From a virus (Duplodnaviria > Caudoviricetes), in IMG/VR virus record IMGVR_UViG_3300028886_000036, positions 192,001 to 256,000 of that record: DNA of 64,000 nucleotides, one strand, 5' to 3'. How positions within the stretch are numbered: the stretch's first letter is position 1; each line of letters starts with the position of its first letter. The notes under the pieces are model-generated. The model was given only the letters and a program-made list of their open reading frames with translations. It did not search any database and was not told the origin of the DNA. Shown here in pieces: positions 32,036-60,291 of this stretch. The translations under genes were made by a program, and so were the position numbers.

Positions 32036-32039
32036 GTTG

Positions 32040-32130
32040 CACCTCCACCTGCCCAAGATAAGACAGTGGGTTAACTGGGTTAACCTCTGTCGAACTACTC
32101 GAAAGTAGTTTCTCTGAAAGCAGATTCATT
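32040..32130 (-). ncRNA. structured 5' leader RNA, copy A
   Basis: near-identical to 50602-50692 with a compensatory stem change. Confidence 0.7.
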
Positions 32131-32226
32131 CGCATTATATATATACAACTTAAAATTGATAGTTGACAACTACTTCTTTTTGCTTTATAATACAGTCATA
32201 TTAATAATCACAAGGAGGTTAATTAA

Positions 32227-33588
32227 TTGCCCTTAAGATGGTCTGAAGAAGAACATGACATTATTAGATTTATTAATTCTTATAACAACGAAGTAGTCAA
32301 TAGCGGTTACAAAGAGATGAGATATACAGCGGATGATGTATATGAAATATGGAATAATTATCTATCAGATAACTACAGGGGGTTTGAATCTGTGAAACAT
32401 AAAATGAGAGAGGTGGATTCATTTAGTTTGAATGACAGTATAATTAAATTTTTGAGTGGTAGTAATTCACTTACTATTATGGATCTTATGGAGTATTATC
32501 ATATATTTGATTTTATGGCTGAGAAATGCCTAGAATACTATGAACAAAAATTTATGAAAAGATTTTATGATAGAAACACTGATGAAATCTTTACAAAAGA
32601 GCTTAAAGAGACTATTATAGAGAATCCTATTGTAGATCATAAGATTAAAATAGATACTGGTAATACTCCAGTTTTGGTTAAACCAGAGCCTGATACTATT
32701 AAATCAGATGTTCCAGTTTCTAGTAAAAAAATTGAATCATTAGATATACCAGAAGCACCAGTTAAAAAGAAGGGTAAAAACTCATTAAAGAAGATTACTA
32801 AAAAGAGTAAGTATAAGACTTTAGCTGATGTAGAACAAGAATCAGTTGAAGATATTCCTGAAGAACCATTTGCTGCTTTGAAAGAAATAGTTAATAGTTA
32901 TAAGGTGCATATTAAAATTGGAATTATTGGAGATACTCATATTGGTAATATCTTTTGTGATGAGAATACTCTTAACAGTTTTTATAAGAGATGTAATGAT
33001 CTCGGTATCAAATACATCATTCACGCTGGTGATCTTGTAGATGGTCATAATATGTATAATGGCCAGGTTAAAGAGCAGAATCTTCACGGATTTGAAGAGC
33101 AAGTAAAGTATGTAATCTCTAATTATCCCAAATATGATGGACTTGTAACCTATGTAATTTCTGGTAATCACGATATGTGTTATTTTAATAATACGACTTT
33201 ACATCCTCTAGTTACTATTAGTAGATCTAGACCAGATATCATTTATGCTAGTGACTATTATGCTAATATTGATATTGATGGTATTAAGATTACAATGATT
33301 CATACTGATGGTAACAGTGGATCTGAACCAATGACTAAACTAAAGAAGCTTATCAATAATAGAACTGAACCGTGTGATGTTATGGTGATGGGCCATTTAC
33401 ATCAGTCTATGGAATTGAGAGATTATTGTGGAGTAGCATATGCATGTGCTCCTGGGTCTTTCTTAAAGCCTAATTCATATACTATTAGAAGAGGATTCAA
33501 CTGTACTCTTGGTGGATATATTCTTGATATTGAAAAGAATCTTTCCACTAATAAACTTATAGTTACATCTACTTGGATCAGTGAATAA
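32227..33588 (+). CDS. metallophosphoesterase with long N-terminal extension
   Basis: GDTH, HAGDLVDG, GNHD, GHLH motifs. Confidence 0.85.
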   Translation: MPLRWSEEEHDIIRFINSYNNEVVNSGYKEMRYTADDVYEIWNNYLSDNYRGFESVKHKMREVDSFSLNDSIIKFLSGSNSLTIMDLMEYYHIFDFMAEKCLEYYEQKFMKRFYDRNTDEIFTKELKETIIENPIVDHKIKIDTGNTPVLVKPEPDTIKSDVPVSSKKIESLDIPEAPVKKKGKNSLKKITKKSKYKTLADVEQESVEDIPEEPFAALKEIVNSYKVHIKIGIIGDTHIGNIFCDENTLNSFYKRCNDLGIKYIIHAGDLVDGHNMYNGQVKEQNLHGFEEQVKYVISNYPKYDGLVTYVISGNHDMCYFNNTTLHPLVTISRSRPDIIYASDYYANIDIDGIKITMIHTDGNSGSEPMTKLKKLINNRTEPCDVMVMGHLHQSMELRDYCGVAYACAPGSFLKPNSYTIRRGFNCTLGGYILDIEKNLSTNKLIVTSTWISE

Positions 33589-33603
33589 TAAAAAGAAGGA
33601 GGG

Positions 33604-33999
33604 TTATGCCCTCCTCCCTCTTATGAATTCTACCCTAAACATGTGCCCATCACGCATGGTGAAATCTCCGCCAATCAGAACGCTATACTGTTTGCCACCA
33701 TTAATCTCTAAGAATACTTCACAGAGATTAACGAAGAACCCTTCGATAGTAACTTTAACTCCGTTGGGAAGGACTTCTTCATGACGTTTTCCGCGTGGGA
33801 TGCTAATCGGAAAGAGTTCCCCATCAAAATTGATAACGACACCACGCCCTTTTAAAAGAGATGAAGCCTCATTTTCAAGAAGAGGGAGGCGAAAATGTGA
33901 GGGTTTATAATTTCTCGGTGAATAGCTTCCCTCTCTGCCTCCAACAGTAGTGTAGCTACCATTACGGATGGAAATAATTACCTGCTGACCTATTGACAT
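33604..33999 (-). CDS. hypothetical protein (single-gene inverted cassette)
   Basis: AAGGAGG RBS; class-I motif at 34038. Confidence 0.65.
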   Translation of the reverse strand: MSIGQQVIISIRNGSYTTVGGREGSYSPRNYKPSHFRLPLLENEASSLLKGRGVVINFDGELFPISIPRGKRHEEVLPNGVKVTIEGFFVNLCEVFLEINGGKQYSVLIGGDFTMRDGHMFRVEFIRGRRA

Positions 34000-34058
34000 C
34001 GTGTATTACCTCCTTAAGGTAGTTTTAGATATTCGTATTATATATATACAAGACAGGA

Positions 34059-34580
34059 GTGATTTTGTACTTGAGTAATGGAATTACTAAACTAATTTAT
34101 TATACCTTTAATGATGTAGTTAAGTTAGTTAAAAGTGAATATGGCTTTGATGTGTCATATTTGAAATGCAGTATTCTGAATAACAACAAAAGAGATTTTA
34201 CTATTAGAGCTGGAGACACTATATTTATAAACTACAACTTAGGTATTATTCTTAAAAACAAATACGGTATTGAGTTTGATAACTATAAGAAGTTTTTTGT
34301 AATTGCAATTGCTAAAGAGATTGGTAAAGAAGTAATGGGTAAGTTCGTAGATGCTGAAACTAAAAAGCATTGGTTAGAAGTTATTGATAACTTTGATGAA
34401 CTTGCTTTAGTTGGCCCAACTAACTATGAGAATGGTGAATTGGAACCATTAAGCGATTTCTTTGCATTAAAGATCTATCAGATTATGTTGCCAAAACTTA
34501 ATGAGTTTGTTAAGAAGTATAAGAAGGGAGTAGATAAAAATGTCGAAAAAGACAGAGAGCAGAGCGATTCCGTGGAGTAA
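34059..34580 (+). CDS. degenerate member of the phage HExxH family (KEIGK)
   Basis: VKSEYGFDVSYL...IFIN...IAKEIGK aligns by eye with 54403 and 56196. Confidence 0.5.
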   Translation: MILYLSNGITKLIYYTFNDVVKLVKSEYGFDVSYLKCSILNNNKRDFTIRAGDTIFINYNLGIILKNKYGIEFDNYKKFFVIAIAKEIGKEVMGKFVDAETKKHWLEVIDNFDELALVGPTNYENGELEPLSDFFALKIYQIMLPKLNEFVKKYKKGVDKNVEKDREQSDSVE

Positions 34581-35085
34581 TGAAGAGGTTATTCTTCTTA
34601 AGCTTAATTATGCTTGTAAAGGAGCTAAAACCTGGAGGGAGATCTCACAGAATATGCAGGAGTATACAGGTATTATTAGAACTACTCCCTCATTAATTGT
34701 GAGAATTCAAAAGCTTAAGGATGATAACGAACCACTTACCATTAAAGATATTGTTAAGCTTTATAATGATGTAGTGTTTGATGTGAATCATACCTATACA
34801 AAAAAGTTTACAGATTATGTAGTTGAGCATTTCTCAAATCAACTTTCTACTACTGAAAAAGAAATTGTTGAGACCCTTAACATCGAGCCAGAATCACAGA
34901 TTGAAAAGAATAGGGTTGATTTCTTGGATGGATTTGATTATGAGATTGATGGTTTTGAAGAAGATAGATATGCTGATGAAGATGAATATCCAACAAAATG
35001 GAATCTTGGTTTGATTCTTGACTATCTTCTTTGTACAGCTGCTGCTATTGTTGTTCTCTATACATTGGTAACCTATATTGGCTAG
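34540..35085 (+). CDS. hypothetical protein, N-terminal Myb/SANT-like HTH and C-terminal TM
   Basis: WSNEE..LL......WREIS.....RT pattern. Confidence 0.5.
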   Translation: MSKKTESRAIPWSNEEVILLKLNYACKGAKTWREISQNMQEYTGIIRTTPSLIVRIQKLKDDNEPLTIKDIVKLYNDVVFDVNHTYTKKFTDYVVEHFSNQLSTTEKEIVETLNIEPESQIEKNRVDFLDGFDYEIDGFEEDRYADEDEYPTKWNLGLILDYLLCTAAAIVVLYTLVTYIG

Positions 35086-35389
35086 AAAGAAAAAAGAACC
35101 TGAACAAATACAGGAAGAAGTAATAGACCTTGATGAGCTAGTACAGGCTATAGATAATAGATTCAATGCTATAGAATCTGTGCTAGCTCAGCAAAAAGAA
35201 AAAGAAAAGAAATGGGGTTTTGAAGTATTAGAGTGTAGAGATGATCTAGCTAATACTAAAGGGTTTCACTGGTTTCATCCACAAGCTACTGGTTTTGAAA
35301 GTGGAATCAGTAAAAATTATGTTAAATATTGTAAATATACAGGTAAAAATTATCCTAAAAGAAACGACTCAGATTACTTTCAATGGTAG
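35078..35389 (+). CDS. hypothetical protein
   Basis: ORF track. Confidence 0.55.
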   Translation: MARKKKEPEQIQEEVIDLDELVQAIDNRFNAIESVLAQQKEKEKKWGFEVLECRDDLANTKGFHWFHPQATGFESGISKNYVKYCKYTGKNYPKRNDSDYFQW

Positions 35390-35435
35390 TTGACATAAAA
35401 TTAAATAGTGTTATAATAGAAGGGAGGTGGTAGTG

Positions 35436-36815
35436 ATGGCATTTATGAAAGATAGGTTGTATGTAGAAGAGCTTAGTGATTTTGATAAGAACAAGCTTAC
35501 TATTTTCACAGAAGAAGATACTATTACTTGTTATGATAGTACTGAAGTAGACGGTAAAAAGTATTACCGTATTCCACGTTATTTCAGTAATATAGAATAC
35601 GATGATTTAACTACCGAAGGATTTGATATTGATATTGAAATGAATCCTGAATTTAAACCATTGAACGAACAACAAGAAAATGCTATTGAAGCTATAGTAG
35701 ATAATGTGCATGGACTAGTTTCTGCTAGGGTTGGTTTTGGTAAAACTTATGTAGCAGTTAATAGTATTACCAGAATCAAAAAAAGAACACTTATTATTGT
35801 ACATGTTTCTACTAAAGATGGCCTTATGGATCAGTGGAGAGATGCTATTATTAGATATACTAATCTTTCTATTGATGATATTGGTTATCTTACATCAAAA
35901 ACAAAAACTATTGATAAACCCATTTATCTGACCACAGTACAAACACTGTTATCTAGAGTAAAAAGAAATGATCAAGAGTTTTTTGATATGATGTATAAAG
36001 GTAACTTTGGAGCAACCTATTTTGATGAGTGCCACATTACTGCTTCCTCTGCTGAATTTAGTGAAAGCACTAAAACTATTTTTTCTAGAAGAATATATGG
36101 CTTGAGTGCTACACTAATTAGAAGAGATAATCTAGCCCCATTACTTAACTGGAATATCGGAAATGTTATTTATGATGATGGTCAATGGTTTGTATTACCA
36201 ATATATGCAGGTCTACTTGACATTCCAATTAAGATGGGTGGATATGGTAGATATCTGGAGTATGGTAGTGCTTCTGCATGGAGTGTTAAGTATGCAAAGT
36301 TCTTGTCCAAAAAAGAAGAGTATTTAAAAGCAGTAGCTACTATAGTAGATAAATGCATTGAACAGGGTAGAAACCCATTGATACTTTCATCTCAAATAGA
36401 TATTCTAAACAAAATATATAGCTTATCAAAACATCAAGAAGATATTAGTATTGTTCATGGTAAAGTGGTTAATAAAGATTATACAAAGAAATGTATACTA
36501 GCTACTTTAGGTATGTTTAAAGTTGGAATGGATATTCCTAGACTGGATACTTTAATTTTTGCTACACCACTCACTGCAAAGAATGGTCTTATACAAGCAA
36601 TTGGTAGAGTTGCAAGAATCTTTAAACCAGTGCCTAATAAAAAAGTAATGCTTGTAGATATTGCAAATTCGTTGTATAATAAGACTATGCAGATGAGAGA
36701 AGTTAGACAGAAATACTATAAAGAGATTAATGAGCATAGTAGTAAAGGTTGTGTACAAGTAAGACTTAATGAGCTTAATGATATTGATAAACTAATTAGA
36801 TTTTGTAATAAGTAA
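35436..36815 (+). CDS. SF2 helicase (UvsW/ResIII-like)
   Basis: GFGKT, DECH, GLSAT, G.DIP.LD, QAIGR..R motifs. Confidence 0.9.
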   Translation: MAFMKDRLYVEELSDFDKNKLTIFTEEDTITCYDSTEVDGKKYYRIPRYFSNIEYDDLTTEGFDIDIEMNPEFKPLNEQQENAIEAIVDNVHGLVSARVGFGKTYVAVNSITRIKKRTLIIVHVSTKDGLMDQWRDAIIRYTNLSIDDIGYLTSKTKTIDKPIYLTTVQTLLSRVKRNDQEFFDMMYKGNFGATYFDECHITASSAEFSESTKTIFSRRIYGLSATLIRRDNLAPLLNWNIGNVIYDDGQWFVLPIYAGLLDIPIKMGGYGRYLEYGSASAWSVKYAKFLSKKEEYLKAVATIVDKCIEQGRNPLILSSQIDILNKIYSLSKHQEDISIVHGKVVNKDYTKKCILATLGMFKVGMDIPRLDTLIFATPLTAKNGLIQAIGRVARIFKPVPNKKVMLVDIANSLYNKTMQMREVRQKYYKEINEHSSKGCVQVRLNELNDIDKLIRFCNK

Positions 36816-36838
36816 ACAAATTGTTTACATAATACTTC

Positions 36839-36916
36839 GGCCCTGTAGTTCAACTGGATGAACAACTGACTTCTAATCAGTAGGTTATGGGTGTTCGAGC
36901 CACCTCAGGGTCGCCA
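36839..36916 (+). tRNA. tRNA-Arg(TCT)
   Basis: ACTGA-CT TCT AA-TCAGT arm, CCA. Confidence 0.85.
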
Positions 36917-36994
36917 TTAAATTAGCCTGTTTACAAAATGTAAACATAATAAAATAAAAAGAAGGAGCGGTGTTACTGCCCCTTCTTCTTTTTT

Positions 36995-38134
36995 TTAGGT
37001 TCTATGTTTCATTTTATACTTTGGGTACTGAACATAATCATAATCCCAGTATTGCATATCTTCACCAATAGATCTTAATTCTCTTAAGGAAAGTAAGTAA
37101 CTCTTTAACTTTGTAGCTCTTTCTTTTTTAGCATTTGCCAGGCTCTGATATGCCGATACTATGGCTTCTTTTTTGTGCTTTAATTCTTCATCATAACGCG
37201 AAGACGAATACACCCTTTCTCTGGGATTCCAATATCCAATAAAGTAAGCCAATTCATCAAGACGTTTCCTAATTTCACAACGTCTTTCAGGATTATCTTT
37301 AGATGCGTCATTATATTTTGCCCAAGTTAAGCGTTTAAGTTCTCTATTTAACCTATCAGCTTCACTCTTTGCAATAGAGCATTTTAAGTGTAGTTCATCA
37401 CTATCAAGCTCTTTAAGATCTTTTTCAGCTTTATAAATAGCGTTGAATGCATTCTTAAAAAGATCTCGCTGTCTCCAATCGCTGAGAGACCATCTAGCAC
37501 TTGATGCTTTTCTAAAAATACTTAAAGTACTTTCGACTTCTTCTGAGTATCCTCCTGTTTTTTCATATAATTTGCTCAATCGCGTAAACCAGCCCCATGT
37601 GTCGGAATCTTTAGTATCATTAATCTTTTCTTCGGTAAGGAAATAATATTCCTTACTTTCATTATATAGCTTTTCAGGGATATCACGATACCCTGAATAA
37701 TCTATGGTGATATAAGATCCAGTGCTCCACCTCTCATCACCATAGTGGCCTTCTACTTCTTCCTCCCGGATGTCATTTACCCAAACGTTCTTTTTTGACT
37801 TCCTATAGTGACTGATATTTAATTCAAACTTTATATTTGGGATGAATACTCCAGCGTCAACTACTACGTTGTTATCCGTATCGATAAATAAATTTTCCAC
37901 AAATTTTACATGGAAAGTTTTCTCCAAAATTTTAAATACATAATTGAAATCATGAACGCTGTATTTCTTACAAGTTATCTTGCTCCACATATTGAGCATT
38001 TGCTCACGCGATCCTGAGATAGTTTTTACGATTTTGCCAAAATATTCTCTTCTAGTGTAAATTTCAAGAATAATTTCAGCATGCTTGTTTTTAACAACCG
38101 CTAAGCTTTTCTTACCTTTGAACGAATATGCCAT
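36995..38134 (-). CDS. hypothetical protein (single-gene inverted cassette)
   Basis: class-I motif at 38211, two leader hairpins, terminator at ~36955-36995. Confidence 0.7.
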   Translation of the reverse strand: MAYSFKGKKSLAVVKNKHAEIILEIYTRREYFGKIVKTISGSREQMLNMWSKITCKKYSVHDFNYVFKILEKTFHVKFVENLFIDTDNNVVVDAGVFIPNIKFELNISHYRKSKKNVWVNDIREEEVEGHYGDERWSTGSYITIDYSGYRDIPEKLYNESKEYYFLTEEKINDTKDSDTWGWFTRLSKLYEKTGGYSEEVESTLSIFRKASSARWSLSDWRQRDLFKNAFNAIYKAEKDLKELDSDELHLKCSIAKSEADRLNRELKRLTWAKYNDASKDNPERRCEIRKRLDELAYFIGYWNPRERVYSSSRYDEELKHKKEAIVSAYQSLANAKKERATKLKSYLLSLRELRSIGEDMQYWDYDYVQYPKYKMKHRT

Positions 38135-38224
38135 GATAACGCCTCTTTCTGCTGGTGTTTACCAGCAATGAAATATCTGGATTCTAACGAATCCAGTCAT
38201 TGCAATTTCATTATATATTTATAA

Positions 38225-38252
38225 TTGACATCCTAATTAATCTATGCTATAA
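38225..38252 (+). promoter_or_regulatory. sigma-A/70-type promoter of the polymerase N-half
   Basis: TTGACA-N17-TATAAT with TG extended -10. Confidence 0.75.
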
Positions 38253-38282
38253 TCATCTTAACCTTAAAGTAGGAGGAGAAAA

Positions 38283-40883
38283 ATGGCATCACCATTAACT
38301 ACCTATATTAAATGGCTATCTATCCCGGAAGATATTCCATTTCCAGAAGAATGTAAGTCATTAAATATTAAAACTATTTTGAATCTAGCAGAAGAAGATC
38401 TATTTGCTGGATTGATGATGAATCAGCTGTTCAATGACGCATATGCTTATAATTATAGCATTGAAGATATTGCTAGACTTCATAAGAAACATAATAGTAC
38501 TTATAAGTTTAATTATATTAAGCAAGTTCCTAAACTTCCTGAACCAGTTAAAAAAGAAGAGGTTAAGGAAGTCGTAGTGCATAAGAAAACTAAATATAAA
38601 AGACCTAAAGAAAAACCAGGTATTACAGAAGAAATCAACCCTGAAGAGAATCCAATGCTGGTTAATGTCTATTATGATGGGGATAATAGACAAGTTGCTT
38701 ATGTAACCAGAGTTGATAGGAAAAGGTATATTGAGATAGTCGATGACAATGTTATGATGTATTATGGTAAAGATGATTATCTTAATGTTAGTGATGCTGC
38801 TAGATTGAAAAGTGAATTGGTTTCTTATAGATACCGTAATAAAACTATTGAAAAGCATAAAGAAGAACATCCTTATGATGCAATCTATAATGTAGATCTT
38901 AATATTGCTATTCCTAAAACAGTATCTTGGAAAGAGAATCATCCTAATGCTGGTACTTATAAATTAAGGATTAACTATATTGATATTGAGTTGTATCAGG
39001 AAGGTTATGGAGTAATTGACTTCTCTGATTTGAAAACTTCAGCTAGATTAATTCCAGTTAACTTGATTACTATTTATGATAATTATGATGATAAATATTA
39101 CACTTTGATTTACAATTTGAACCGGTCAGAAATTAAACCTGAACAAATTAAAGGATATTTAGACTATAAAGATGAATGTAATTTTGATGTAAGAATTTTT
39201 GATAAAGAAACTGATTTGTTTTTGGAGTTCTTTAGATTGCTAAAAGAATTTGATCCAGATCTAGTATCTGGATGGAATAGTGACGAGTTTGACTTACCCT
39301 ATATCAAATATAGAGCTGAATTTCTTGGTATTAAGAATCCTAAATTGGCTCATAATAAAGTGTTTGGTATTGAATATAAGACTCTTACCAATAAGCACAA
39401 TGAAGAAATTACTTATTGTATTCCTAAACTTGGCTATTCGGTTGCTTTGGATTATCAAAGATGTTATAAAGAGAGAGCTTTTGGTAAAAGAGAAAACTAT
39501 AAGCTTGGTACTATTTCACAATATGAACTTGGTATTACTAAACTTGATACTGAAGATGGTATGGATAAGATCTTTAGAGAAGAACCTGAACGTTTTATTG
39601 CATACAATATTAACGACGTTCATCTGGTTAGAAAGCTTGATGAAAAACTGAAGTATATCGATTTGTGCTTTAATATTATCCAGTTCGCTAATATTTCTTG
39701 GGATAGTGTTTATACCACACTTCATATTGTTGATGGCATTCTTTATGAGTATTTGATTAAGCAATCTAAAGTAATGAAGATTGTTAATAGAGATGTTGAA
39801 AAACAACCTTTCATGGGCGCATATGTGAGAAAACCAATTAGTGGAGTACATGATTGGTTAGGTGATTTGGATCTTACATCTCTGTATCCTTATATTATGG
39901 CTAGATATAATATTAGTGCAGATACTTATGTTGGAAAACTTGATTTTGAAGATAGTAAAGAATACATTTATAACAAGGAAGGCTTTATTAATAGTAACAA
40001 GAAGATTAATCTATATCTTAGAGTAGATGGCATTGAAAAAAGATATGAGATTAGTACTAAAGGCTTCCATGATAAAATGATTAAGAATAAGTACATCATT
40101 ACTTATACTGGTACTATCTTTAAAAGGCATGAAGATAAGTTGTCTGTTTTGTATGAAATTATTCAGATGCTTATTTCTAAACGTAAAGAGTATAAGGATC
40201 TGATGAAAGATAATATTGGCGTAAATGATATGCTGGTTGATAGATATAATGGAATGCAGATGACTGTTAAAGTTATTACTAACTCTTTGTATGGAGCTCA
40301 GTCTAATAATAGATTTAGAATGTATGATTATGAAGTAGCTAGATCTATTACTACTACTGGTAGAGAAATTGCTAAAGTAGCTGCTGTAGTTGCCAATGAT
40401 CTGATTAATCAAATGATTAGAAATAAGAGTGGCAAATTTAACAGTGTTGAGATTCCTTATGATTGGGAAGAAAAATCTGATGATATTCTTAGCAATGTTG
40501 TATATGGAGATTCAGTTACTGGAGACAGTTTGATTAGAACTGGTATTGGTAATATTCCAGTTAAGGATATTTGGGAGACTCAAATGAAAGCCTATCCTGA
40601 ATTGTCTAAAACTGGTGAGATTAACACTGGTTATGTTCAAATGAATGGCAAGGAGTATATCCTGAATCCTAATATAACAATACTTGGAGTAGACGACAGT
40701 TTATATATCCCAAGATACATTATGAAACATAAAGTTAAAAAGAAACTGTATAAAATTACAACTGAATCTGGTAAGTCAGTTACTGTTACAGAAGATCATA
40801 GTCTTATTGTTTATAGAAACAATGAGAAGCTGGTTATTAAGCCAACAGAATTGATTGACACAGATAAAGTGATTGTGATATAA
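38283..40883 (+). CDS. polB: family B DNA polymerase, N-terminal part fused to the N-half of a split intein
   Basis: exo motifs DIE, GWN...FDLPY, YNIND; DLTSLYP; K...NSLYG; extein ends YGD, then SVTGDS... with VTEDHSL (intein block B), ending DKVIVI. Confidence 0.95.
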   Translation: MASPLTTYIKWLSIPEDIPFPEECKSLNIKTILNLAEEDLFAGLMMNQLFNDAYAYNYSIEDIARLHKKHNSTYKFNYIKQVPKLPEPVKKEEVKEVVVHKKTKYKRPKEKPGITEEINPEENPMLVNVYYDGDNRQVAYVTRVDRKRYIEIVDDNVMMYYGKDDYLNVSDAARLKSELVSYRYRNKTIEKHKEEHPYDAIYNVDLNIAIPKTVSWKENHPNAGTYKLRINYIDIELYQEGYGVIDFSDLKTSARLIPVNLITIYDNYDDKYYTLIYNLNRSEIKPEQIKGYLDYKDECNFDVRIFDKETDLFLEFFRLLKEFDPDLVSGWNSDEFDLPYIKYRAEFLGIKNPKLAHNKVFGIEYKTLTNKHNEEITYCIPKLGYSVALDYQRCYKERAFGKRENYKLGTISQYELGITKLDTEDGMDKIFREEPERFIAYNINDVHLVRKLDEKLKYIDLCFNIIQFANISWDSVYTTLHIVDGILYEYLIKQSKVMKIVNRDVEKQPFMGAYVRKPISGVHDWLGDLDLTSLYPYIMARYNISADTYVGKLDFEDSKEYIYNKEGFINSNKKINLYLRVDGIEKRYEISTKGFHDKMIKNKYIITYTGTIFKRHEDKLSVLYEIIQMLISKRKEYKDLMKDNIGVNDMLVDRYNGMQMTVKVITNSLYGAQSNNRFRMYDYEVARSITTTGREIAKVAAVVANDLINQMIRNKSGKFNSVEIPYDWEEKSDDILSNVVYGDSVTGDSLIRTGIGNIPVKDIWETQMKAYPELSKTGEINTGYVQMNGKEYILNPNITILGVDDSLYIPRYIMKHKVKKKLYKITTESGKSVTVTEDHSLIVYRNNEKLVIKPTELIDTDKVIVI
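40512..40883 (+). mobile_element. split intein N-fragment (123 aa, Ser1)
   Basis: block A SVTGDSLI immediately after YGD; block B TEDH. Confidence 0.9.
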
Positions 40884-40897
40884 TTTAATAGAAGGAG

Positions 40898-41473: not shown

Positions 41474-41493
41474 TGAAAGGGATTGATTAACAA

Positions 41494-41769: not shown

Positions 41770-41786
41770 GAAAGGACTGATTCTTA

Positions 41787-42365: not shown

Positions 42366-42470
42366 GGAAGTGTTATTTTGAAATTGGTATTGGAACACTA
42401 TGCTATGTTTATATGCATTTGGTGTGCTGAATATATGATTGCAAATCTTATTTAGAAAGGGAGTATTTTA

Positions 42471-42797
42471 GTGGCAACTAAAGTTTTAACAGATACTGGT
42501 CATTTTGATATAATGGATTATACTGTTACTAAGTTTTATGGTAAAGATATTTATAAGCCTTATAAAGAGTATGGTGTTAAAGCATATTTCGAGGCATTGA
42601 AAGAAGCTATTAAAGGCATTGCTTCGCCGCCTTCATATATTTTGGTATTTGATAATAAAAAGTATACCTGCAAGCTGTTTGTTAATCAGAAAGAAGTTAA
42701 ACCAAAGAATCCCGGTGAGCTTCAGAAGAAGATTGATAAATATAAAAGGATGAAGTTTAAAGAGAATACCAAGGAGGATAATAGTAATGAAGGTTAG
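42471..42797 (+). CDS. hypothetical protein
   Basis: ORF track, RBS. Confidence 0.6.
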   Translation: MATKVLTDTGHFDIMDYTVTKFYGKDIYKPYKEYGVKAYFEALKEAIKGIASPPSYILVFDNKKYTCKLFVNQKEVKPKNPGELQKKIDKYKRMKFKENTKEDNSNEG

Positions 42798-43458
42798 ACT
42801 TATTGCCGAAACTAATAACCCAGAATATGTTGTTACATTGGCTGCGGCTACTTGTTATAGTGATAAAGAATACACTGAGCTTTATGATAAGTGTAACGAT
42901 AAAAAGTATCAGGAGACCCTTATTACTAAACTTCTTTCTAGTGGGCATGAAAGTCCTTTTGAGCATGCTTGTTTTACATTCTTTATTGAAGGAGTATCTA
43001 GATCTATGACTCACCAATTGGTAAGACATAGGATTGCATCATATTCCCAGCGATCTCAGAGATATACTAAAATGAAACCTTCAGAATTTAATATCCCAGA
43101 GAGTATTAGTTCTGATCCAGAAAAGAAGAAAGCTTTTGAAGAACATCTTAAAGATACATTCCAGCTCTATGATGAATTGATTGCTGGTGGAGTTCCTAAA
43201 GAAGATGCTAGAGAGATTCTTCCTAATGCAACTCAAACTACTATTGTAATGACTATGAATCTTAGAGAGCTTAGACACTTTATGGAATTGAGAATGTGTA
43301 ATAGAGCTTCTACAGAAATTAGAGCAGTTGCTGATGAGGTTTATTCTATTCTTAAAATGTATCATCCTTTACTGGTTATCGGTGCAGGACCCAAATGCTG
43401 GTATGGTAAATGCACTGAAGAACATAAAACTAAAGATTGCCCTAAAAAGAAAATTTAA
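42787..43458 (+). CDS. thyX: flavin-dependent thymidylate synthase
   Basis: GHESPFEH, THQLVRHRIASYSQRSQRY, KEDAR.ILP, MNLREL.HF..LR. Confidence 0.97.
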   Translation: MKVRLIAETNNPEYVVTLAAATCYSDKEYTELYDKCNDKKYQETLITKLLSSGHESPFEHACFTFFIEGVSRSMTHQLVRHRIASYSQRSQRYTKMKPSEFNIPESISSDPEKKKAFEEHLKDTFQLYDELIAGGVPKEDAREILPNATQTTIVMTMNLRELRHFMELRMCNRASTEIRAVADEVYSILKMYHPLLVIGAGPKCWYGKCTEEHKTKDCPKKKI

Positions 43459-43504
43459 TAAACAAAAAGAAACTACCGTAGTGATACGGTAGTTTCTTTT
43501 TTAA

Positions 43505-43942
43505 TTATGAGTTCACATGGATAAATCCAAGTAAGTCGCCAATATTAAATTCATTTAAGATAGCTAACGCCTTATCATAGAGATCCTTTTTTATTTTTTC
43601 ATAGTCAAACTTAACTTGACTCTTAATGAATGCTTGATTAGGATCTTTCAAAATAGTTGAATAGAACAAAGATGACATTAGATCTTTAAAGCTATAGAAA
43701 ACTTGGTAACAACCATCTTCTCTAATAAATAGATAGATGTCATAGTATCTATTAACTACAGCCTCCCAAGGTACCTGCCCATATTTAAAGGTAATACCGT
43801 TTGTTAAACAGTATTCTTTAAACAGGTCAAGTGACACAAACTGAAGTACTTTAACTTTTTCAGGAATAAACGCCTTAGCATCCTGGAGTTTTTCAATCTT
43901 CATCCAAAGATTATAGTAATAATTCTGCTCTACAGTTTCCAT
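43505..43942 (-). CDS. hypothetical protein
   Basis: GGAGG RBS. Confidence 0.65.
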   Translation of the reverse strand: METVEQNYYYNLWMKIEKLQDAKAFIPEKVKVLQFVSLDLFKEYCLTNGITFKYGQVPWEAVVNRYYDIYLFIREDGCYQVFYSFKDLMSSLFYSTILKDPNQAFIKSQVKFDYEKIKKDLYDKALAILNEFNIGDLLGFIHVNS

Positions 43943-43953
43943 TAAAATTCCTC

Positions 43954-44265
43954 CTAATCAATATTAGATGGTCTATCTCCACACATCTTTATAAAGGTAT
44001 GTGCTATCTCACAAATATCATACTTATCGTCATCTTTAACAAACTTATTATTGTGATATGTACAACTATAACAGTCGTTACAAATAAAATCTTTAAGCAT
44101 AGTTAATCCCAAGGTTCTAATAAATTTTGCTTTGCCAGCACATACTTCATCAACTGTATGATCATGACTAGCATTTATAGGACAGCGGCTATTACATTTA
44201 GTATAAGACAAACATCTATTTGTAAATTGTATACTATAGTATAATACTACTGCAAAATGATTCAT
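43954..44265 (-). CDS. Cys-rich small protein (family member 3)
   Basis: two Cys clusters. Confidence 0.6.
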   Translation of the reverse strand: MNHFAVVLYYSIQFTNRCLSYTKCNSRCPINASHDHTVDEVCAGKAKFIRTLGLTMLKDFICNDCYSCTYHNNKFVKDDDKYDICEIAHTFIKMCGDRPSNID

Positions 44266-44474
44266 TCTTTATCCTCAAAAGACATATCCATAAAATATTC
44301 ATCTTCATTGTCAGTACAGACTGCTATAGCGCCCTGATGAAGATATCCTAAAATCGCCATAAGATTATTAACATCATTCTCGTCAATTCGTATTTCAATA
44401 GGAGTATACTCTTTGAACACAAATTTTATAGTTTTCATACCGTTCCTCCATATCTCAACTTTTTTATAATACAC
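44262..44474 (-). CDS. small hypothetical protein
   Basis: ORF track. Confidence 0.5.
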   Translation of the reverse strand: MYYKKVEIWRNGMKTIKFVFKEYTPIEIRIDENDVNNLMAILGYLHQGAIAVCTDNEDEYFMDMSFEDKE

Positions 44475-44769
44475 CGTTACCTTTCATTTCAGAATATTTT
44501 ACTGCTAATATATTAGTAGAACACGATCCTCTCCCTTCCCATATTACATGTTGTTTGTATTCACAAGATATACAATTTTTATGTTGTGAACAAAATCCCC
44601 TGGCAGTTACAATAATCTTATTACTGTCATGAAATTTAGAAGATACTGATACATATCTATATAATGTGCAACAATCTCCCTTTGATTTATACCGACAACT
44701 ATTGCAGCATACTTGAGTCATACAATAATTTATTAAAACAATATTTGTAGCGAGATCTAATTTTCTCAT
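44464..44769 (-). CDS. Cys-rich small protein (family member 2)
   Basis: DL..NI.L.NYCM...C..C shared with 44821. Confidence 0.65.
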   Translation of the reverse strand: MRKLDLATNIVLINYCMTQVCCNSCRYKSKGDCCTLYRYVSVSSKFHDSNKIIVTARGFCSQHKNCISCEYKQHVIWEGRGSCSTNILAVKYSEMKGNGVL

Positions 44770-44820
44770 AATTTCACCTCTTATTATACCACAAACACAT
44801 CTAATTGCTAAAGCACTTAT

Positions 44821-45135
44821 TTACTTCAATTTCATCCCTTTGAGAAGTACATATCTTAAAGCAGTAATACTAGCAGCACAATATTCCTCCTTGCCTCCGG
44901 TAGCTAATATACAGTCATACTTACAACATCCAGAACTACTATCACAAATCTCTAGTAGTTTTGATATAATATTCTCATCAAACACCTCTTTAGCTCCATC
45001 TAATGCCCATCTAGTTATATTACACACTTGAGGTTCATTCTCATCTAAAAACTTACATTTATAACAATACTCAACCCCCATACAATAATTAGCCAAGCAT
45101 ATATTTAGTACCAAATCATATCTTACACGCTTCAT
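44821..45135 (-). CDS. Cys-rich small protein (family member 1)
   Basis: class-I motif at 45178; paralog of 44464. Confidence 0.65.
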   Translation of the reverse strand: MKRVRYDLVLNICLANYCMGVEYCYKCKFLDENEPQVCNITRWALDGAKEVFDENIISKLLEICDSSSGCCKYDCILATGGKEEYCAASITALRYVLLKGMKLK

Positions 45136-45199
45136 AAGACCACCTCTTCTAAAATATAAACTAAATGAACAGTGTAATAATATACTTATAAATTTTTAC

Positions 45200-45227
45200 T
45201 TGACAAGATGAAATAATCGTGTATAAT
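45200..45227 (+). promoter_or_regulatory. sigma-A/70-type promoter of the polymerase C-half
   Basis: TTGACA-N16-TATAAT. Confidence 0.7.
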
Positions 45228-45249
45228 AACAGTGTGAGGTGAGAAAAAG

Positions 45250-45369
45250 ATGAAGCTTGAACGGATTAAATCAGTTGAAGTTATAGACCCAAATTATGAT
45301 GTAGATGTTTATGACTTTGAACTGCCAGTCGAACATAACTTCTTTGCTAATGATATTCTAGTGCATAAT
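45250..45369 (+). mobile_element. split intein C-fragment (40 aa, His-Asn, Thr+1)
   Basis: blocks F/G: VYD...HNFFAN.ILVHN|T. Confidence 0.92.
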
Positions 45370-46239
45370 ACTGATTCAATCTTTACCAAGTATGGAGATG
45401 CATTAAAAGCTATCTATGGAGATGAATATGATGATATCTCCGATACTGATAAGATTAGTAAAGTTATTGAATTGAATGAGTCTGTAGCACAGTACATTAA
45501 CAATGTAATGATACCAGATTTGCTAGAAAAACACAATACCTCTGCTACAGAATCTAGTGCTAAGAAGTTTAACTTTAACTTTAAACAGGAACTAGTTATT
45601 AGAAAAGCATTGTTTATTGAAGCTAAAAAGAAGTATGCAACTTGGCTGGTTTCAAAAGAAGGTAAACCTCTTGATAAGATTAATATTACTGGTCTAGAAA
45701 TTGTTAGATCTGATTTCCCGAAATTTAGTAGGGATATGATGAGAAATGTAGTTAATGATATTCTGAAAAAGGGTATCACTAAAGAAGATCTAATTATTAT
45801 GTTATCTCAGTATAAAGATCAGTATATGGAACTACTTCAAACTGGATCTACAGATGCTGCTATACCTAGTTCTTGGAATAAAGAGAACTATGCTAGTGTA
45901 CCTAGAGCTGTTAAATCGATGTTAATCTACAATGCTATCTATGGCAATACATTTAAGATACTGGATAGAGGTTATAGATTTGACTTGGAAAATATTAATA
46001 TAAGTCAGTTTGATGAGACAGTTAGAAAACGCTTGACAGATTTAGTTGAGAGTGGTAAAATGGGAAAAGAAGGTAAGTTGGATTGCATCACTATCCCATC
46101 AGGTAGTGTATTAGATACAAGTAAGTTTACCATTGATTACAACAAGATGGTTGGATTTGCAATCGATGATAGACTGAAAAATTTCTGTGAGATATTTGGT
46201 ATCAGTATTGAGGATCCTGATGCAATAAGTTGGATCTAA
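45250..46239 (+). CDS. polB: family B DNA polymerase, C-terminal part fused to the C-half of a split intein
   Basis: 40-aa IntC (VYDFEL...HNFFANDILVHN) then TDSIF, KKKYA, GLEIVRSD. Confidence 0.95.
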   Translation: MKLERIKSVEVIDPNYDVDVYDFELPVEHNFFANDILVHNTDSIFTKYGDALKAIYGDEYDDISDTDKISKVIELNESVAQYINNVMIPDLLEKHNTSATESSAKKFNFNFKQELVIRKALFIEAKKKYATWLVSKEGKPLDKINITGLEIVRSDFPKFSRDMMRNVVNDILKKGITKEDLIIMLSQYKDQYMELLQTGSTDAAIPSSWNKENYASVPRAVKSMLIYNAIYGNTFKILDRGYRFDLENINISQFDETVRKRLTDLVESGKMGKEGKLDCITIPSGSVLDTSKFTIDYNKMVGFAIDDRLKNFCEIFGISIEDPDAISWI

Positions 46240-46269
46240 TATCTTTAATAGGAGGTAATTGAAGTTCAG

Positions 46270-46452
46270 ATGGCTAAAGGACTGAAGAAGTTCAAGGATG
46301 ATATGTATGAGGACTATACGTCTAGGAACAGAAATAAGGACAAAGGGAAACCATCATATCACAAGGGTACATCGCCTAGAAACACCGACGATGATGAGTT
46401 TGACAGGACCACTAAGTTTGGTGGTAAGAAATCTAATTCTAGGAGGAAATAG
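46270..46452 (+). CDS. small basic protein
   Basis: AGGAGG RBS. Confidence 0.6.
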   Translation: MAKGLKKFKDDMYEDYTSRNRNKDKGKPSYHKGTSPRNTDDDEFDRTTKFGGKKSNSRRK

Positions 46453-46457
46453 TTAAG

Positions 46458-46955
46458 ATGATTATTTATGTAGTTAACGAAGAGAAAAAGAAAGTATGTG
46501 CGTATATGCCGGATTGCAGACAGGATTTTATTAACTATGTTTATAATTGTGGTTCGGTGAATAATGATGGTAGGCTTAAGTTTATTGCAGATATTGTTTC
46601 TTTCGACAAGCTTGCCAAGTTCCCTGACAAGTTCTTTGCAGTAGCCACCTGTGATGATAGGGATGATTTTGATCCTGAAATTGGTAAGGAAATTGCAAAA
46701 GCTAAATTGCTTGTTAAGTATTACAACACTAGGGCTAGGTTTATTCGTAGCATCTATGAAGAGGCTATTGAGTATTTCAATAAGTTCGCTGAGTCACTCC
46801 AGACTGGTTATGAAGTTGCTCTTCAGAAGGTTGAAGATAGCCAGAATTATGTTGATGATGTTAATCAGATTCCAGATCATAATGAACAGCTTGAAATTGA
46901 GCTTAATGGTGATGTGGAAGTTAACGATGAAGAAGATACTTCTTCTGAAGAATAA
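46458..46955 (+). CDS. hypothetical phage protein
   Basis: A.C...D.FD.E.GK..A..K motif common in Firmicute phages. Confidence 0.65.
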   Translation: MIIYVVNEEKKKVCAYMPDCRQDFINYVYNCGSVNNDGRLKFIADIVSFDKLAKFPDKFFAVATCDDRDDFDPEIGKEIAKAKLLVKYYNTRARFIRSIYEEAIEYFNKFAESLQTGYEVALQKVEDSQNYVDDVNQIPDHNEQLEIELNGDVEVNDEEDTSSEE

Positions 46956-46978
46956 TTATATTAAGGAGATTGATAACT

Positions 46979-47425
46979 ATGTCGTGTCAGTTTAATCGTG
47001 TTATTATTGCGGGAAATCTTGGTTCTGATCCTTTCTACAAACAGCGTGATGATGGTCGTGATTTCTGCACTTTCCGACTTTTTGTTAATAGGACTTTCTT
47101 TATGAGAGATCCTGCTACTGGAGAAGTTGTTAAGAAGGAATCTGTTGATAGCCCTGTTATTCAGTGCTGGGGTAAGAATGCTGAACGCATGGGTAAGTAC
47201 CTTACCAAAGGTCGTAACGTTCTGATTGAAGGCCATATTGAGACTCATCAGTGGCAGGATAAGAATGACCCAAATGTGATGCATAATGAAACTGTTGTTA
47301 TGGCTGACGACTTCAAGTTTATCGATAAGCCTCGTTCTGCTGAAGCTACCCCTAAAGCCTATACTAAAGAAGATACTCCAGTTGATAACACCGGAGATGT
47401 TGATACTGTAGCAGTTGACATTTAA
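46979..47425 (+). CDS. ssb: bacterial-type single-stranded DNA-binding protein
   Basis: NRVII.GNLG.DP, WGK.AE...YL.KG..V.IEG. Confidence 0.92.
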   Translation: MSCQFNRVIIAGNLGSDPFYKQRDDGRDFCTFRLFVNRTFFMRDPATGEVVKKESVDSPVIQCWGKNAERMGKYLTKGRNVLIEGHIETHQWQDKNDPNVMHNETVVMADDFKFIDKPRSAEATPKAYTKEDTPVDNTGDVDTVAVDI

Positions 47426-47507
47426 CTAAAAAGCTGGTATAATTCTTATAGCACAATATAAGAGCTATACCAGCTCTTTTTATATCTCTAGATTGGGAGT
47501 GGTAATT

Positions 47508-49163
47508 ATGGATAATATTTTGGGAGAACTTAGACAGATTCTGGATAATAATAGAGAGTTTATGGGTAGTGAATTTTTGTCAGTGTATTCTAGATTGGTA
47601 TTTGGTAAAAAGACTGATCCTACAGTATTGAAGTCAGCATCATATCTCTGTAAAGAATTTAAATATTTTATTGAGAGAGTAAAAGATAAACAGAATACTA
47701 TTGGAGTTACTCTTATTACTTTGGATTCTTTACAGCAGAAGATGTTACAGTATGTTAGTAAGAGTTTTAATAATAAAAGTAAAGTAATTGATGGAGATGT
47801 AGCTCTAGAGAAATATAAGAATTTTATTAATAACGATGTATCAATCAGTTATGAAGATAAGCAGAAAGCATTAAGTATTACCACTCAAGAAGATCTTCAG
47901 TTGGATGTAGTGAATGAAATCCAAACTAGTTTTTCTAATAAGAAATGTATGTTCAATTCATTAGGTCAGTATGAGATACTTAAGACTTTTATTAATAGTG
48001 GTTATAATGAATGTGAAAACTGGGGAGAATTTGTAGATAAGTTTCATAAGTTGTTAGGTACAGCACTTTTGGATGTACAAGCTTATACTTATGATGCGGC
48101 TAATTCATTAGATCTATCTAGTATGACTATTGAAGATGTAGTTAATAATAATAATCAAGTCACCAAGATTAGTACTGGGTATAATATGTTTGATAAAGTA
48201 CTTCAGGGTGGTTTTCAGAATCAAAGAGTGTATATGTTTGGTGGTATTTCTGGTGGTGGTAAATCTCTAGTATTGGTTAATTTTGCATTTAGAGCGAAGT
48301 TGTTTTTGGATAAGAAATATCCAAAAGAAGAAAGATCTAAACATACTGTATTGTATATTTCATTAGAGAATAGCACTAAAGAAACTGGTGATAGATTTAT
48401 TTGTTGTGCATTGGGTCAATCTATTGCTCAAATTGAAAATGGGTTTAGTAGTTTGAAAGATCAGTATAACTACAGCATTAAAGAAGTATTTAATCCAGAT
48501 AATGCTAGAATCAATATCACATATAGACCAGCTAAAAGTATCGATATCTATGATATCCAAACTATTATTACCGATATTGAAAGAAGTACAAAAAGTAAAG
48601 TAGATATTTTGTTTGTGGATTATGCAGATAAAATGTCTGCAGTGAATGCGTCTAAATCAGATCAAGAATGGAGAGATCTTGGTTATATTGTTGATGAATT
48701 GAAATCATTATCTATTTCATTGGATATCCCGGTAGTTACAGTTACACAGCTTAATAGAGAAACTTATAAGGGGAAAGGCAAAGGTAATGAGTTCAGTATT
48801 AATGGTGGTAATATCTCTGGTTCAATTAGAAAAAGAGAGAATGTTGACTTCTTTACTATCTTCAACTTCAAAGCCAAAGAAGAAGAAGAAATCAGTATGA
48901 ATGATAATCCTGATGAAGTCTTTGATGATAGAAAAGATGTTATGAAACCAATTGAACCAGTATATTGTATAGTTGATAAAAACAGAATGGGCCCAGATAA
49001 TCTGAAGTTCCAAGTATATATTGATTATCCAACTTACAGAATGCTTAATTACCCAAGTGAGAATATTAGTACTAGTTTCTATCATAATGGCAGTATTGAA
49101 AAAGTTATGATTGATGAAGATGAAAGTAAGCTTGATGAAAAATTAAGAGATACAATGCTTTAA
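47508..49163 (+). CDS. replicative helicase (DnaB/gp41-like)
   Basis: STGY..FD..L.GG, GGISGGGKS, ISLEN, VDYAD, TVTQLNR, KNR.G. Confidence 0.92.
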   Translation: MDNILGELRQILDNNREFMGSEFLSVYSRLVFGKKTDPTVLKSASYLCKEFKYFIERVKDKQNTIGVTLITLDSLQQKMLQYVSKSFNNKSKVIDGDVALEKYKNFINNDVSISYEDKQKALSITTQEDLQLDVVNEIQTSFSNKKCMFNSLGQYEILKTFINSGYNECENWGEFVDKFHKLLGTALLDVQAYTYDAANSLDLSSMTIEDVVNNNNQVTKISTGYNMFDKVLQGGFQNQRVYMFGGISGGGKSLVLVNFAFRAKLFLDKKYPKEERSKHTVLYISLENSTKETGDRFICCALGQSIAQIENGFSSLKDQYNYSIKEVFNPDNARINITYRPAKSIDIYDIQTIITDIERSTKSKVDILFVDYADKMSAVNASKSDQEWRDLGYIVDELKSLSISLDIPVVTVTQLNRETYKGKGKGNEFSINGGNISGSIRKRENVDFFTIFNFKAKEEEEISMNDNPDEVFDDRKDVMKPIEPVYCIVDKNRMGPDNLKFQVYIDYPTYRMLNYPSENISTSFYHNGSIEKVMIDEDESKLDEKLRDTML

Positions 49164-49211
49164 GAGAATAAAATAAAAAGGCCGCGATGTAGCTGCGGCC
49201 TTTTTCCATTT

Positions 49212-49868
49212 TTACTCCTTAATAATCAACTTCCCGATTGCTGATTCTCCGCGAAACATAGTACGGAATGTCCGAGACAGAATTCCATAATTTCCGCACT
49301 CATTCGTGTCTGGAAACACTGACCAGCAGAATCCTGGAACATCCAATTTTAAGTCTTTAGAGTGATCATCAAGACGGAATACCTTTGAGACCTGTGTATA
49401 GGTATCCTTTTCTGGAACCCATGTCTCCACGGAAGTTCTCGGGCACCACAGATTGGAGGCATCGTATTCCTCCTCCGTTTCGTAATGCCCTTTGATCGTT
49501 CCTGTCTTTACTTTCCGACCATACGTGACGTATACTCCGCTATTTGGGCCGATCTTGATTTCGACCCCCAAAAATAGTCCGTTCCTTTCAATGCAATATG
49601 GTTCGTATAACGGGAGCGGTTTAACGTCGGGCCATACCGCGCCATCTCGTAATGTGACTGGAATGTCCGGGATTTCCACCCGGAATTCCTCCGGGGCCAT
49701 GAATCGCCCCAGTGTCTCCCAGTATGGCGCAGATACTGCATCACCCAGTATTTCTTCAAACGGATAAAACTTAAAGTATTTCACTATCATTGTGGCTTTC
49801 ATTTTGTCATCCTCCGAGGGCAGTTGCCCAAAAACGCAGAGCCAGTTGTTAAGAGGATCTAGGATCAC
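49212..49868 (-). CDS. hypothetical protein (GC-richer inverted cassette)
   Basis: class-I motif at 49917; terminator at ~49175-49205. Confidence 0.65.
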   Translation of the reverse strand: MILDPLNNWLCVFGQLPSEDDKMKATMIVKYFKFYPFEEILGDAVSAPYWETLGRFMAPEEFRVEIPDIPVTLRDGAVWPDVKPLPLYEPYCIERNGLFLGVEIKIGPNSGVYVTYGRKVKTGTIKGHYETEEEYDASNLWCPRTSVETWVPEKDTYTQVSKVFRLDDHSKDLKLDVPGFCWSVFPDTNECGNYGILSRTFRTMFRGESAIGKLIIKE

Positions 49869-49988
49869 TCTCCAAACCTAGCTGATGGACATTGATTATA
49901 TGTCCTGTCACTGCCCTAATATATATACAAATGAAAATAGAAAAATAAATAAAAAGAAGACCTAAATAGTATAGGTCTTCTTTTAATC

Positions 49989-50291
49989 TTATAACCAAAG
50001 AGTAAATTCTAAGTCATCTAACCTATAGATAATTTTACCTCTAGTTTGTGCTCCCTTTATCTTTTTTAGTTCAGTTTCTTCTTTTACTACGACATTATAC
50101 TTTCCAGATATTTCTTCTTTAATCAGATCAGCATTAATTATAGACATATGGAAAGTACGATAATACCATACTTTTATATACTTGTTTTCATCTTCAAGAC
50201 AAAATAATGTAAACCAATCTTTATATTTACCACATATAACTGGAATTTCGTGCATATGTCGATTACCCTGAGTTAACCCTAAACAACTCAT
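49989..50291 (-). CDS. hypothetical protein (inverted cassette)
   Basis: GGAGG RBS; class-I motif at 50326. Confidence 0.6.
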   Translation of the reverse strand: MSCLGLTQGNRHMHEIPVICGKYKDWFTLFCLEDENKYIKVWYYRTFHMSIINADLIKEEISGKYNVVVKEETELKKIKGAQTRGKIIYRLDDLEFTLWL

Positions 50292-50402
50292 AACAAACAC
50301 CTCCAAAGAGATTAAGATACTTTCATTATATACTTATGAATAAAGCATAGACTAAATAAAAAGAAGACCCTAAACTTCAGGGCCTTCTTTTTAATATTAT
50401 AG

Positions 50403-50597
50403 TTACTTCTCGTTCTTAACGCGTTCGATACGTAAGCCTTTCAAGCAATCCCACAATTTCGGGGAATACTCTGATTTATAGCTACTTACGAAAATAGCGT
50501 GCCGGATGCAATATATGATTGCTTCCGGCACCCGAAACAATCCGCAGCCAACAACGTGTGCTGCGGACAACCCGCAATCGATACTAACGTTAAACAT
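50403..50597 (-). CDS. small hypothetical protein (64 aa) behind structured leader B
   Basis: GGAGGT RBS then MFNVSID. Confidence 0.6.
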   Translation of the reverse strand: MFNVSIDCGLSAAHVVGCGLFRVPEAIIYCIRHAIFVSSYKSEYSPKLWDCLKGLRIERVKNEK

Positions 50598-50601
50598 CGT
50601 A

Positions 50602-50692
50602 TACCTCCACCTGCCCGAGATAAGACAGTGGGTTAACCAGGTTAACCTCTGTCGAACTGCGTTTTGCAGTTTCTCTGAAAGCAGATTCACTG
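50602..50692 (-). ncRNA. structured 5' leader RNA, copy B
   Basis: near-identical to 32040-32130. Confidence 0.7.
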
Positions 50693-50742
50693 TCCTAATA
50701 TATATACAAACAGAAATTGGTTATAGAACCAATAATAAAAAC

Positions 50743-60267: not shown

Positions 60268-60291
60268 TAAAAACAAAAGTAAAAGGGCCTT

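Follow-up and report, generated by a model that had tools for sequence, protein, structure and literature searches.

A three-way-junction RNA leader shared by unrelated small genes of a cattle-rumen jumbo phage

Why should two unrelated small genes of one phage be preceded by almost the same RNA leader of about 90 nt? The question is raised by a stretch of 64,000 nucleotides (the window) that covers bases 192001-256000 of the 275,466-bp IMG/VR virus record IMGVR_UViG_3300028886_000036. The record has a G+C content of 32%, at least eight tRNA genes and one HEARO RNA, and the runs and contigs that hold this phage come from bovine gut and rumen samples; the host of the leader is thus a 275-kb cattle-rumen jumbo phage. 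An initial annotation had proposed that the leader is a portable, structured RNA ahead of unrelated cargo, and its non-coding, structured and portable character is borne out by the relatives described below. As to its function, the leader is tentatively read here as a constitutive, portable structural module of the 5' untranslated region (5'UTR), shuffled among early cassettes that resemble the promoter-early stem-loop (PeSL) cassettes of other phages; this is the favored reading, although it falls somewhat short of being probable.

Near-identical leaders are present on the minus strand at both of the loci first pointed out. The limits originally drawn, 32040-32130 and 50602-50692, do mark the two copies, but the elements are better drawn as 32036-32127 and 50598-50688, which in each case is the whole predicted 5'UTR. 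Their parts, with the scores of a covariance model (CM) and the position of the Shine-Dalgarno (SD) sequence, are as follows.

32036-32127, minus strand: copy A leader, 92 nt, CM score 113.9 bits
32118-32125 with 32047-32054, minus strand: P1 of copy A, both read from the letters and folded
32111-32114 with 32055-32058, minus strand: P1b of copy A, read and folded
32093-32110, minus strand: P2 hairpin of copy A, read and folded
32062-32091, minus strand: P3 hairpin of copy A, read and folded
32041-32046, minus strand: SD sequence GGAGGU of copy A
50598-50688, minus strand: copy B leader, 91 nt, CM score 106.3 bits
50679-50686 with 50609-50616, minus strand: P1 of copy B
50603-50608, minus strand: SD sequence of copy B

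The homology between the copies begins at the promoter motif, runs through GGAGGU and stops before the ATG, with a mean column identity of 93% over an 89-column core. Exactly two strong copies are found in the 275-kb genome by BLAST and by the covariance model, and a 21-nt core word occurs twice against an expectation of 0.01. Every difference between copies A and B either falls at a loop position or preserves a pair, the pairs that change going from A-U to G-C in one case and from G-U to G-C in the other. The open reading frames (ORFs) that follow, of 68 and 64 aa, have no detectable similarity to each other and were correctly taken to be unrelated.

When the element is folded alone, the minimum free energy structure of both copies is the three-way junction as first drawn. 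P1 (AUCUGCUU/GGGCAGGU, 8 bp) ends exactly at GGAGGU and is followed by a 3-nt bulge and the 4-bp P1b (GAGA/UCU(U/C)). P2 is a 6-bp hairpin that reads AACUAC/GUAGUU in one copy and AACUGC/GCAGUU in the other, while P3 (GACAG..GGUUAAC-loop-GUUAACC..CUGUC) consists of 5+7 bp with small bulges (A, CA) and a 3-nt loop. The junction strands measure 0, 1 and 3 nt, with P2 and P3 one nucleotide apart. Folding z-scores of the two copies alone lie between -2.2 and -3.0, and between -2.2 and -4.6 across fold calculations. With 11 extra flanking nucleotides the predicted minimum of copy B goes to an alternative fold. This alternative, which would sequester the SD sequence, was rejected; it requires nucleotides upstream of the predicted transcription start and is unconserved in the relatives.

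The relatives are short contigs from other rumen samples that were found via the cargo proteins. Contigs L003-L006 carry copy A with an identical cargo protein, and in L007, L008, L009 and L102 the same leader precedes homologues of the copy-B gene that are 81% identical. In an alignment of seven closely related sequences, drawn from this phage and its rumen relatives and so from few phage lineages, all 30 pairs are kept and all 210 of 210 pair cells are standard. Three pairs are changed on both sides, namely P2 from A-U to G-C and P1b from G-C to A-U and from A-U to C-G, the P1b double change being found in L008 and L102; one further pair alternates between G-C and G-U. Variable columns make up 10 of the 19 unpaired columns as opposed to 7 of the 60 paired ones (Fisher p=5e-4), and none of the seven breaks a pair. 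P1 (8 bp) and P3 (12 bp) do not vary in any close relative, even where the flanks fall to 75-87% identity. The covariation and three-way junction first read from two copies, and the structural conservation among further homologues that had been set as a test, are thus upheld, and the fold is real, as the relatives keep its pairs through compensating mutations.

Could the conserved stretch instead encode a leader peptide? The length of the P2 loop varies by 1-2 nt, which puts any ORF running across the leader out of frame, and the leader is therefore non-coding. Another suggestion of the initial annotation, a riboswitch-like element, is not supported by the comparison. A riboswitch for a small molecule, or an RNA that cleaves itself or is processed in some other way, would suit a three-way junction located in a 5'UTR beside the SD sequence, but there is no Rfam match at E<=10 at either locus, the junction strands are tiny, the loops vary with few conserved unpaired nucleotides, and neither a conserved alternative pairing nor an expression platform is seen. 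The same search, at E<=10 and at both loci, returned none of the self-cleaving ribozymes (hammerhead, twister, pistol, hatchet, HDV-like). In L008 and L102 the change of P1b from GAGA/UCUC to GAAC/GUUC keeps P1b and abolishes the only candidate anti-SD pairing, that of the UAUCUC stretch. Because P1b is rescued while the anti-SD option is lost, a switch between SD-free and SD-masked states is not conserved. The cargos, moreover, have no common metabolic theme, and this class of explanation is very improbable.

An alternative possibility is that the RNA has no function, in which case the copies would stem from a recent duplication or conversion of promoter-proximal DNA and the palindromes would be a DNA-level operator or recombination site. 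GGTTAAC-N3-GTTAACC is indeed a 17-bp palindrome of operator type, P3 is without covariation, and conversion and exchange between copies are evident. However, nested long-range helices, with P1 and P1b enclosing P2 and P3, are foreign to DNA operators; P1b and P2 are changed on both sides with their pairs kept and no change breaks a pair; and G.U pairs work on the transcribed strand only. An explanation at the level of DNA is therefore given little probability.

Whether the leader spans the whole 5'UTR depends on the promoter, for which both copies share a recurring motif.

32137-32148, minus strand: core of the copy A promoter motif (TTGTATATATAT), predicted +1 at the G at 32127
50698-50709, minus strand: core of the copy B promoter motif, predicted +1 at the G at 50688

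The full motif reads TTGTATATATAT-WA-N4-RRT-G. Its 12-mer occurs about 20 times in the genome, ahead of cassettes, and ten nucleotides past it stands a purine, mostly a G after GT or AT. The motif is without a -35 box and is not sigma70-like. In AR9, a Bacillus jumbo phage, the early promoter consensus of the injected virion RNA polymerase (RNAP) is AAATATATATTAT-(6N)-G+1, and phiKZ and phiR1-37 are likewise reported to have a conserved start located 6 nt past the consensus (PMC5312081). The present genome holds two genes for RNAP beta-like subunits (PF00562), which makes the analogy with AR9 a reasonable one. By this analogy, transcription probably starts at the conserved G at 32127 and 50688, two nucleotides before P1. 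The predicted transcripts begin GAAUCUGC, with P1 from +3, and the predicted transcription start site (TSS) coincides with the 5' edge of the element instead of lying downstream of it, which the initial annotation had named as grounds for dismissing the idea. Three comparisons begin at the predicted +1 G, namely the homology between A and B, the near-identity of L006 and L003, and the cargo swap in L109 (see below), and these concordant boundaries fit a unit whose first nucleotide is that G.

Several further observations concern transcription in this region. A perfect sigma70 promoter (TTGACA-17-TATAAT; 32163-32191, plus strand) is divergent from cassette A and heads an SbcD-like operon, and this phage seems to have both host-type promoters and others that serve its own polymerase. 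The RNA runs X3 and X8 exist as assembled contigs, in which transcript 5' ends are not readable and uncovered parts are no evidence; their contigs start at 32217/32218. Neighboring cassettes at 26477-26501 and 27717-27737 (minus strand) have similar 5' hairpins, GAGUUCUGU...ACAGGACUU and AAGUUCUGU...ACAGGGCU. The first 12 nt are alike in several cassette transcripts (G-A-N-U-C-U-G-Y-U-U-U-C), and this shared start may be part of the promoter.

How, then, did one leader come to stand before different genes? Each copy belongs to a small, independent unit of its own, made up of promoter motif, leader, SD sequence, G+C-rich ORF and intrinsic terminator and inserted on the minus strand amid plus-strand replication genes (ligase, SbcD-like nuclease, DnaB-type helicase).

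31829-32035, minus strand: cargo A, a 68-aa ORF (P0001), 53% G+C
31779-31808, minus strand: intrinsic terminator of cassette A, whose homologue is retained at site A of L109
50403-50597, minus strand: cargo B, a 64-aa Cys/His-rich ORF (P0002)
50357-50393, minus strand: intrinsic terminator of cassette B

The promoter motif of copy B, like that of several further cassettes, comes just behind a terminator hairpin, while that of copy A faces the divergent sigma70 promoter. The homologues of cargo B, P0005 and P0006, are 81% identical and differ in length by whole codons, and cargo B is therefore coding. Neither cargo matches a Pfam, PHROGs or PADLOC family, and nothing usable was found for them in the ESM Atlas.

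Relative L109 shows the exchange most directly. Its site A is homologous to the window across the divergent sigma70 promoter and then the early motif as far as the predicted +1, and again from the terminator onward; the short leader and the G+C-rich ORF of 60 aa that lie between these points are both unrelated. Other cassettes are likewise absent or replaced in relatives. The sequence at 49122-49907 is replaced by other sequence in the DNA runs of relatives, and the cassette at 33579-34071 (131-aa ORF) is missing from two related DNA runs, which have 15 other nucleotides instead, a clean presence/absence polymorphism. It follows that promoter and terminator are the recombination handles and that the leader lies within the exchangeable part; the earlier proposal that the leader itself is the handle is not supported. 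Between L006 and L003, the leader, ORF A, terminator and next promoter are about 99% identical while the next gene is about 70% identical, and cargo A differs across L003-L006 by two synonymous changes only. At site B of L007 stands a leader of A type, with 98% identity to copy A, in flanks that are 75% identical to the window, and the leader has thus moved or been converted between cassettes. It has also parted from its ORF on at least one occasion, for which the shared GGAGGTG is the simplest point, and its copies are homogenized. As regards other mobile sequences, the HEARO RNA of the genome lies at 56785-57003 of the window (plus strand, 116 bits), and relative L106 has an OrfB_IS605 / Cas12f-like TnpB gene (L106:8148-9308) near its Thy1 gene; transposon-derived elements with RNA-guided nucleases seem to move within this phage group.

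What the leader does for its cargo is a separate question. In the favored reading, a constitutive structural module, the nascent RNA would fold into a compact three-way junction in which P1 pairs +3 to +10 with the eight nucleotides directly before the SD sequence. The resulting 5' overhang of only 2 nt would give protection from RNases that depend on the 5' end, as with portable 5' stabilizers, provided that +1 is the conserved G assigned by promoter analogy. The UTR would be packed into one closed domain, GGAGGU being left immediately beyond the helix, and whatever cargo followed, the same leader would lend it comparable stability and ribosome access, acting constitutively and not as a switch. 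It would spread between cassettes by recombination, with crossovers probably at the shared promoter and the shared GGAGGTG, and copies within and between phages would be homogenized by conversion. The support for this mechanism is anatomical and consists of the position of the leader, its kept pairing, the lack of a switch and its natural portability.

Several observations weigh against such a role. The conservation of sequence in P1 and P3 exceeds what structure needs and would suit a specific binding partner, and the evidence base is the seven closely related sequences from few lineages. Pairing of the 5' end is not enriched among the 20 cassettes with the same promoter, with 6 cases observed and 6.0 expected in shuffled leaders. 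Lastly, the computed accessibility of the SD sequence is about zero whether the leader is native, truncated or shuffled, since in silico the SD sequence base-pairs with the GC-rich ORFs, and the idea of an insulator therefore gains nothing from thermodynamics.

Because P1 and P3 are invariant, a specific partner, whether a regulator protein or a polymerase, stays in play. The three-way junction would then be a specific recognition element, either put-like on the multisubunit RNAP of the phage or the operator of a phage regulator, that marks a sub-regulon of early cassettes and travels from cargo to cargo as a mobile control module; this is a possible though on the whole doubtful reading. One form of it is an operator for a trans-acting RNA-binding protein of phage or host, which would co-regulate translation or decay of the cassettes, for example in the shutoff of a subset of early genes. 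P1 and P3, the latter with its A and CA bulges, have stayed constant while the flanks diverged to 75-87%, the same element on two, perhaps three, unrelated genes suggests co-regulation, and P1 ends at the SD sequence, a natural site for a repressor that blocks the ribosome. On the other hand, no candidate binding protein is identified, the hairpin loops, often the points at which proteins make contact, are freely variable, and the invariance may merely reflect recent exchange, with cassette A about 99% identical between diverged phages. A protein operator is accordingly regarded as unlikely.

The other form is a put-like RNA, in which P2 and P3 would bind the transcribing RNAP in cis and alter pausing or terminator read-through. 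Phage HK022 has two put sites behind two early promoters. The put RNA is a double hairpin of about 65 nt that is found in early transcripts and modifies RNAP in cis (PMC8632103). In the present phage, adjacent P2 and P3 hairpins directly follow two early-type promoters and P3 is invariant. However, a strong terminator stands about 300 nt on, followed by its own promoter, and read-through would have no obvious purpose; the element is present on only 2-3 of the approximately 20 cassettes; and the polymerase is probably a phage enzyme. An action of this kind is thus quite improbable.

How widely is the leader distributed? Apart from the two strong copies there is one candidate in the window.

52403-52501, minus strand: candidate third leader, diverged; CM score 17.2 bits with filters off, E 0.019 in the window
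52511-52522, minus strand: promoter motif of the candidate, the same as that of copies A and B
51857-52402, minus strand: cargo of the candidate, a 181-aa ORF of membrane type

This is the best non-self match to the covariance model genome-wide, where noise reaches up to 15.4 bits with filters off. The candidate aligns over its full length and in register from the predicted +1 to the SD sequence, and 13 of its first 18 nt match. The order of helices is the same (P1, bulge, P1b GAGC/GCUC, P2, long P3, SD sequence), and CAGGUGGAG and an AUAC spacer are shared as well. P1, P1b and P2 pair with different letters, in an alignment that is fitted to the model and a count that leans to structure. The candidate is likely, if unproven and marginal, to be a diverged member of the leader family. 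No further copy emerged from the CM search of the genome with filters off, in which the top noise match is without promoter motif or SD sequence and is probably coding. Exact or degenerate leader patterns gave nothing in viral_contigs, and pattern scans of metagenome_contigs and genome_contigs gave chance matches only, all of which failed the covariance model. The phage collection holds no similar DNA, and the leader is absent from the IMG/VR relatives of the 163-aa neighbor, which are at most 43% identical. In Rfam the leader has no match, either at gathering thresholds across the window or at E<=10 at both loci. The RNA motif is therefore new, lies outside Rfam and is narrowly distributed, its known range being a few related rumen phages.

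Other cassettes of the window have features of their own. Leaders and ORFs of the cassettes at 31829-32127, 49212-49909, 50403-50688, 51857-52501 and 60226-60550 have 45-57% G+C in a genome of 32%, and replacement cargo in relatives is likewise G+C-rich. The leader of the 196-aa cassette (49803-49909, minus strand) forms a 5' hairpin GGACAU/AUGUCC, the counterpart of which in L007:1740-1806 is GGGCAU/AUGCCC; since this change is compensatory, other G+C-rich cassettes also carry conserved structured leaders of their own. A closing P1 considered for the cassette at 49909 was dropped, its 5' strand being upstream of the predicted +1. At 51560-51762 (minus strand) the same promoter motif precedes no SD-led ORF, and a G+C-rich stretch of about 200 nt ends in a terminator; the cargo here is probably a non-coding RNA, and the cassette is absent from relative L007. 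Finally, a tRNA-like element at 50743-50809 (minus strand) scores 53.8 bits against the Rfam tRNA model, is uncalled by ARAGORN and has a shortened anticodon arm. A promoter-like motif of its own lies immediately upstream of cassette B, and the element is kept in L007, L008 and L102-L105, even where the neighboring gene is only 57-67% identical.

The accessory cassettes of this jumbo phage appear to be built of modules on three levels, with promoter and terminator handles, an exchangeable folded leader and a cargo ORF. The position of the leader, from the predicted +1 to the SD sequence, leads to clear and testable predictions. Should it stabilize or insulate mRNA, it would be a natural portable 5'UTR part; should it bind a factor, it would offer a route into the control of early genes in uncultured rumen jumbo phages; and should it be a recognition element, no earlier RNA-level regulatory part would be on record for transcripts of jumbo-phage virion polymerases. 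These prospects apply to the range of a few related rumen phages, and the function is inferred.

Comparison with known systems sets the leader apart from each of its nearest counterparts. The promoter resembles early promoters of the AR9/phiKZ type in its extended AT-rich consensus containing TATATATTA and in a conserved purine start at a similar fixed distance, and this genome too has two beta-like RNAP subunit genes. However, the resemblance is one of promoter only and not of leader, and this phage also carries a perfect sigma70 consensus promoter. The 5'UTRs of AR9 are long, 26-491 nt, and the paper that describes them contains no description of a shared structured leader (PMC5312081).

PeSL cassettes were described in T4-type phages (Arbiol et al., 2010; PMC2839356). 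As in that system, units of early promoter and terminator hairpin are repeated before ORFans, some within replication modules, and it is those units that delimit the insertions, deletions and replacements seen when close relatives are compared. The promoter here is AR9-vRNAP-like (vRNAP, virion RNAP) whereas that of PeSL is sigma70-like, so that the two are alike in working but of different families. In addition, the PeSL units are without a long folded 5'UTR, while here a 90-nt leader stands between promoter and SD sequence and is itself shared among cassettes. The model of modular shuffling for T4-type phages is thereby extended to a phage that has RNA polymerases of its own.

With put of HK022 the leader shares a similar size, a structured RNA and two adjacent hairpins just downstream of early promoters. 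In contrast to the leader, put is without a closing helix at the SD sequence, and it acts on the host RNAP for terminator read-through.

In its proposed function the leader would resemble the portable 5'UTR stabilizers of mRNA, which include the E. coli ompA leader, the B. subtilis ermC and aprE leaders and the stabilizer of phage SP82. These have a 5'-proximal helix, function independently of the gene and place the SD sequence beside the structure, and the present leader would be similar in these respects. They are simple 5' hairpins with demonstrated effects on half-life, whereas the leader described here is a closed three-way junction with a predicted TSS and a putative stabilizing role.

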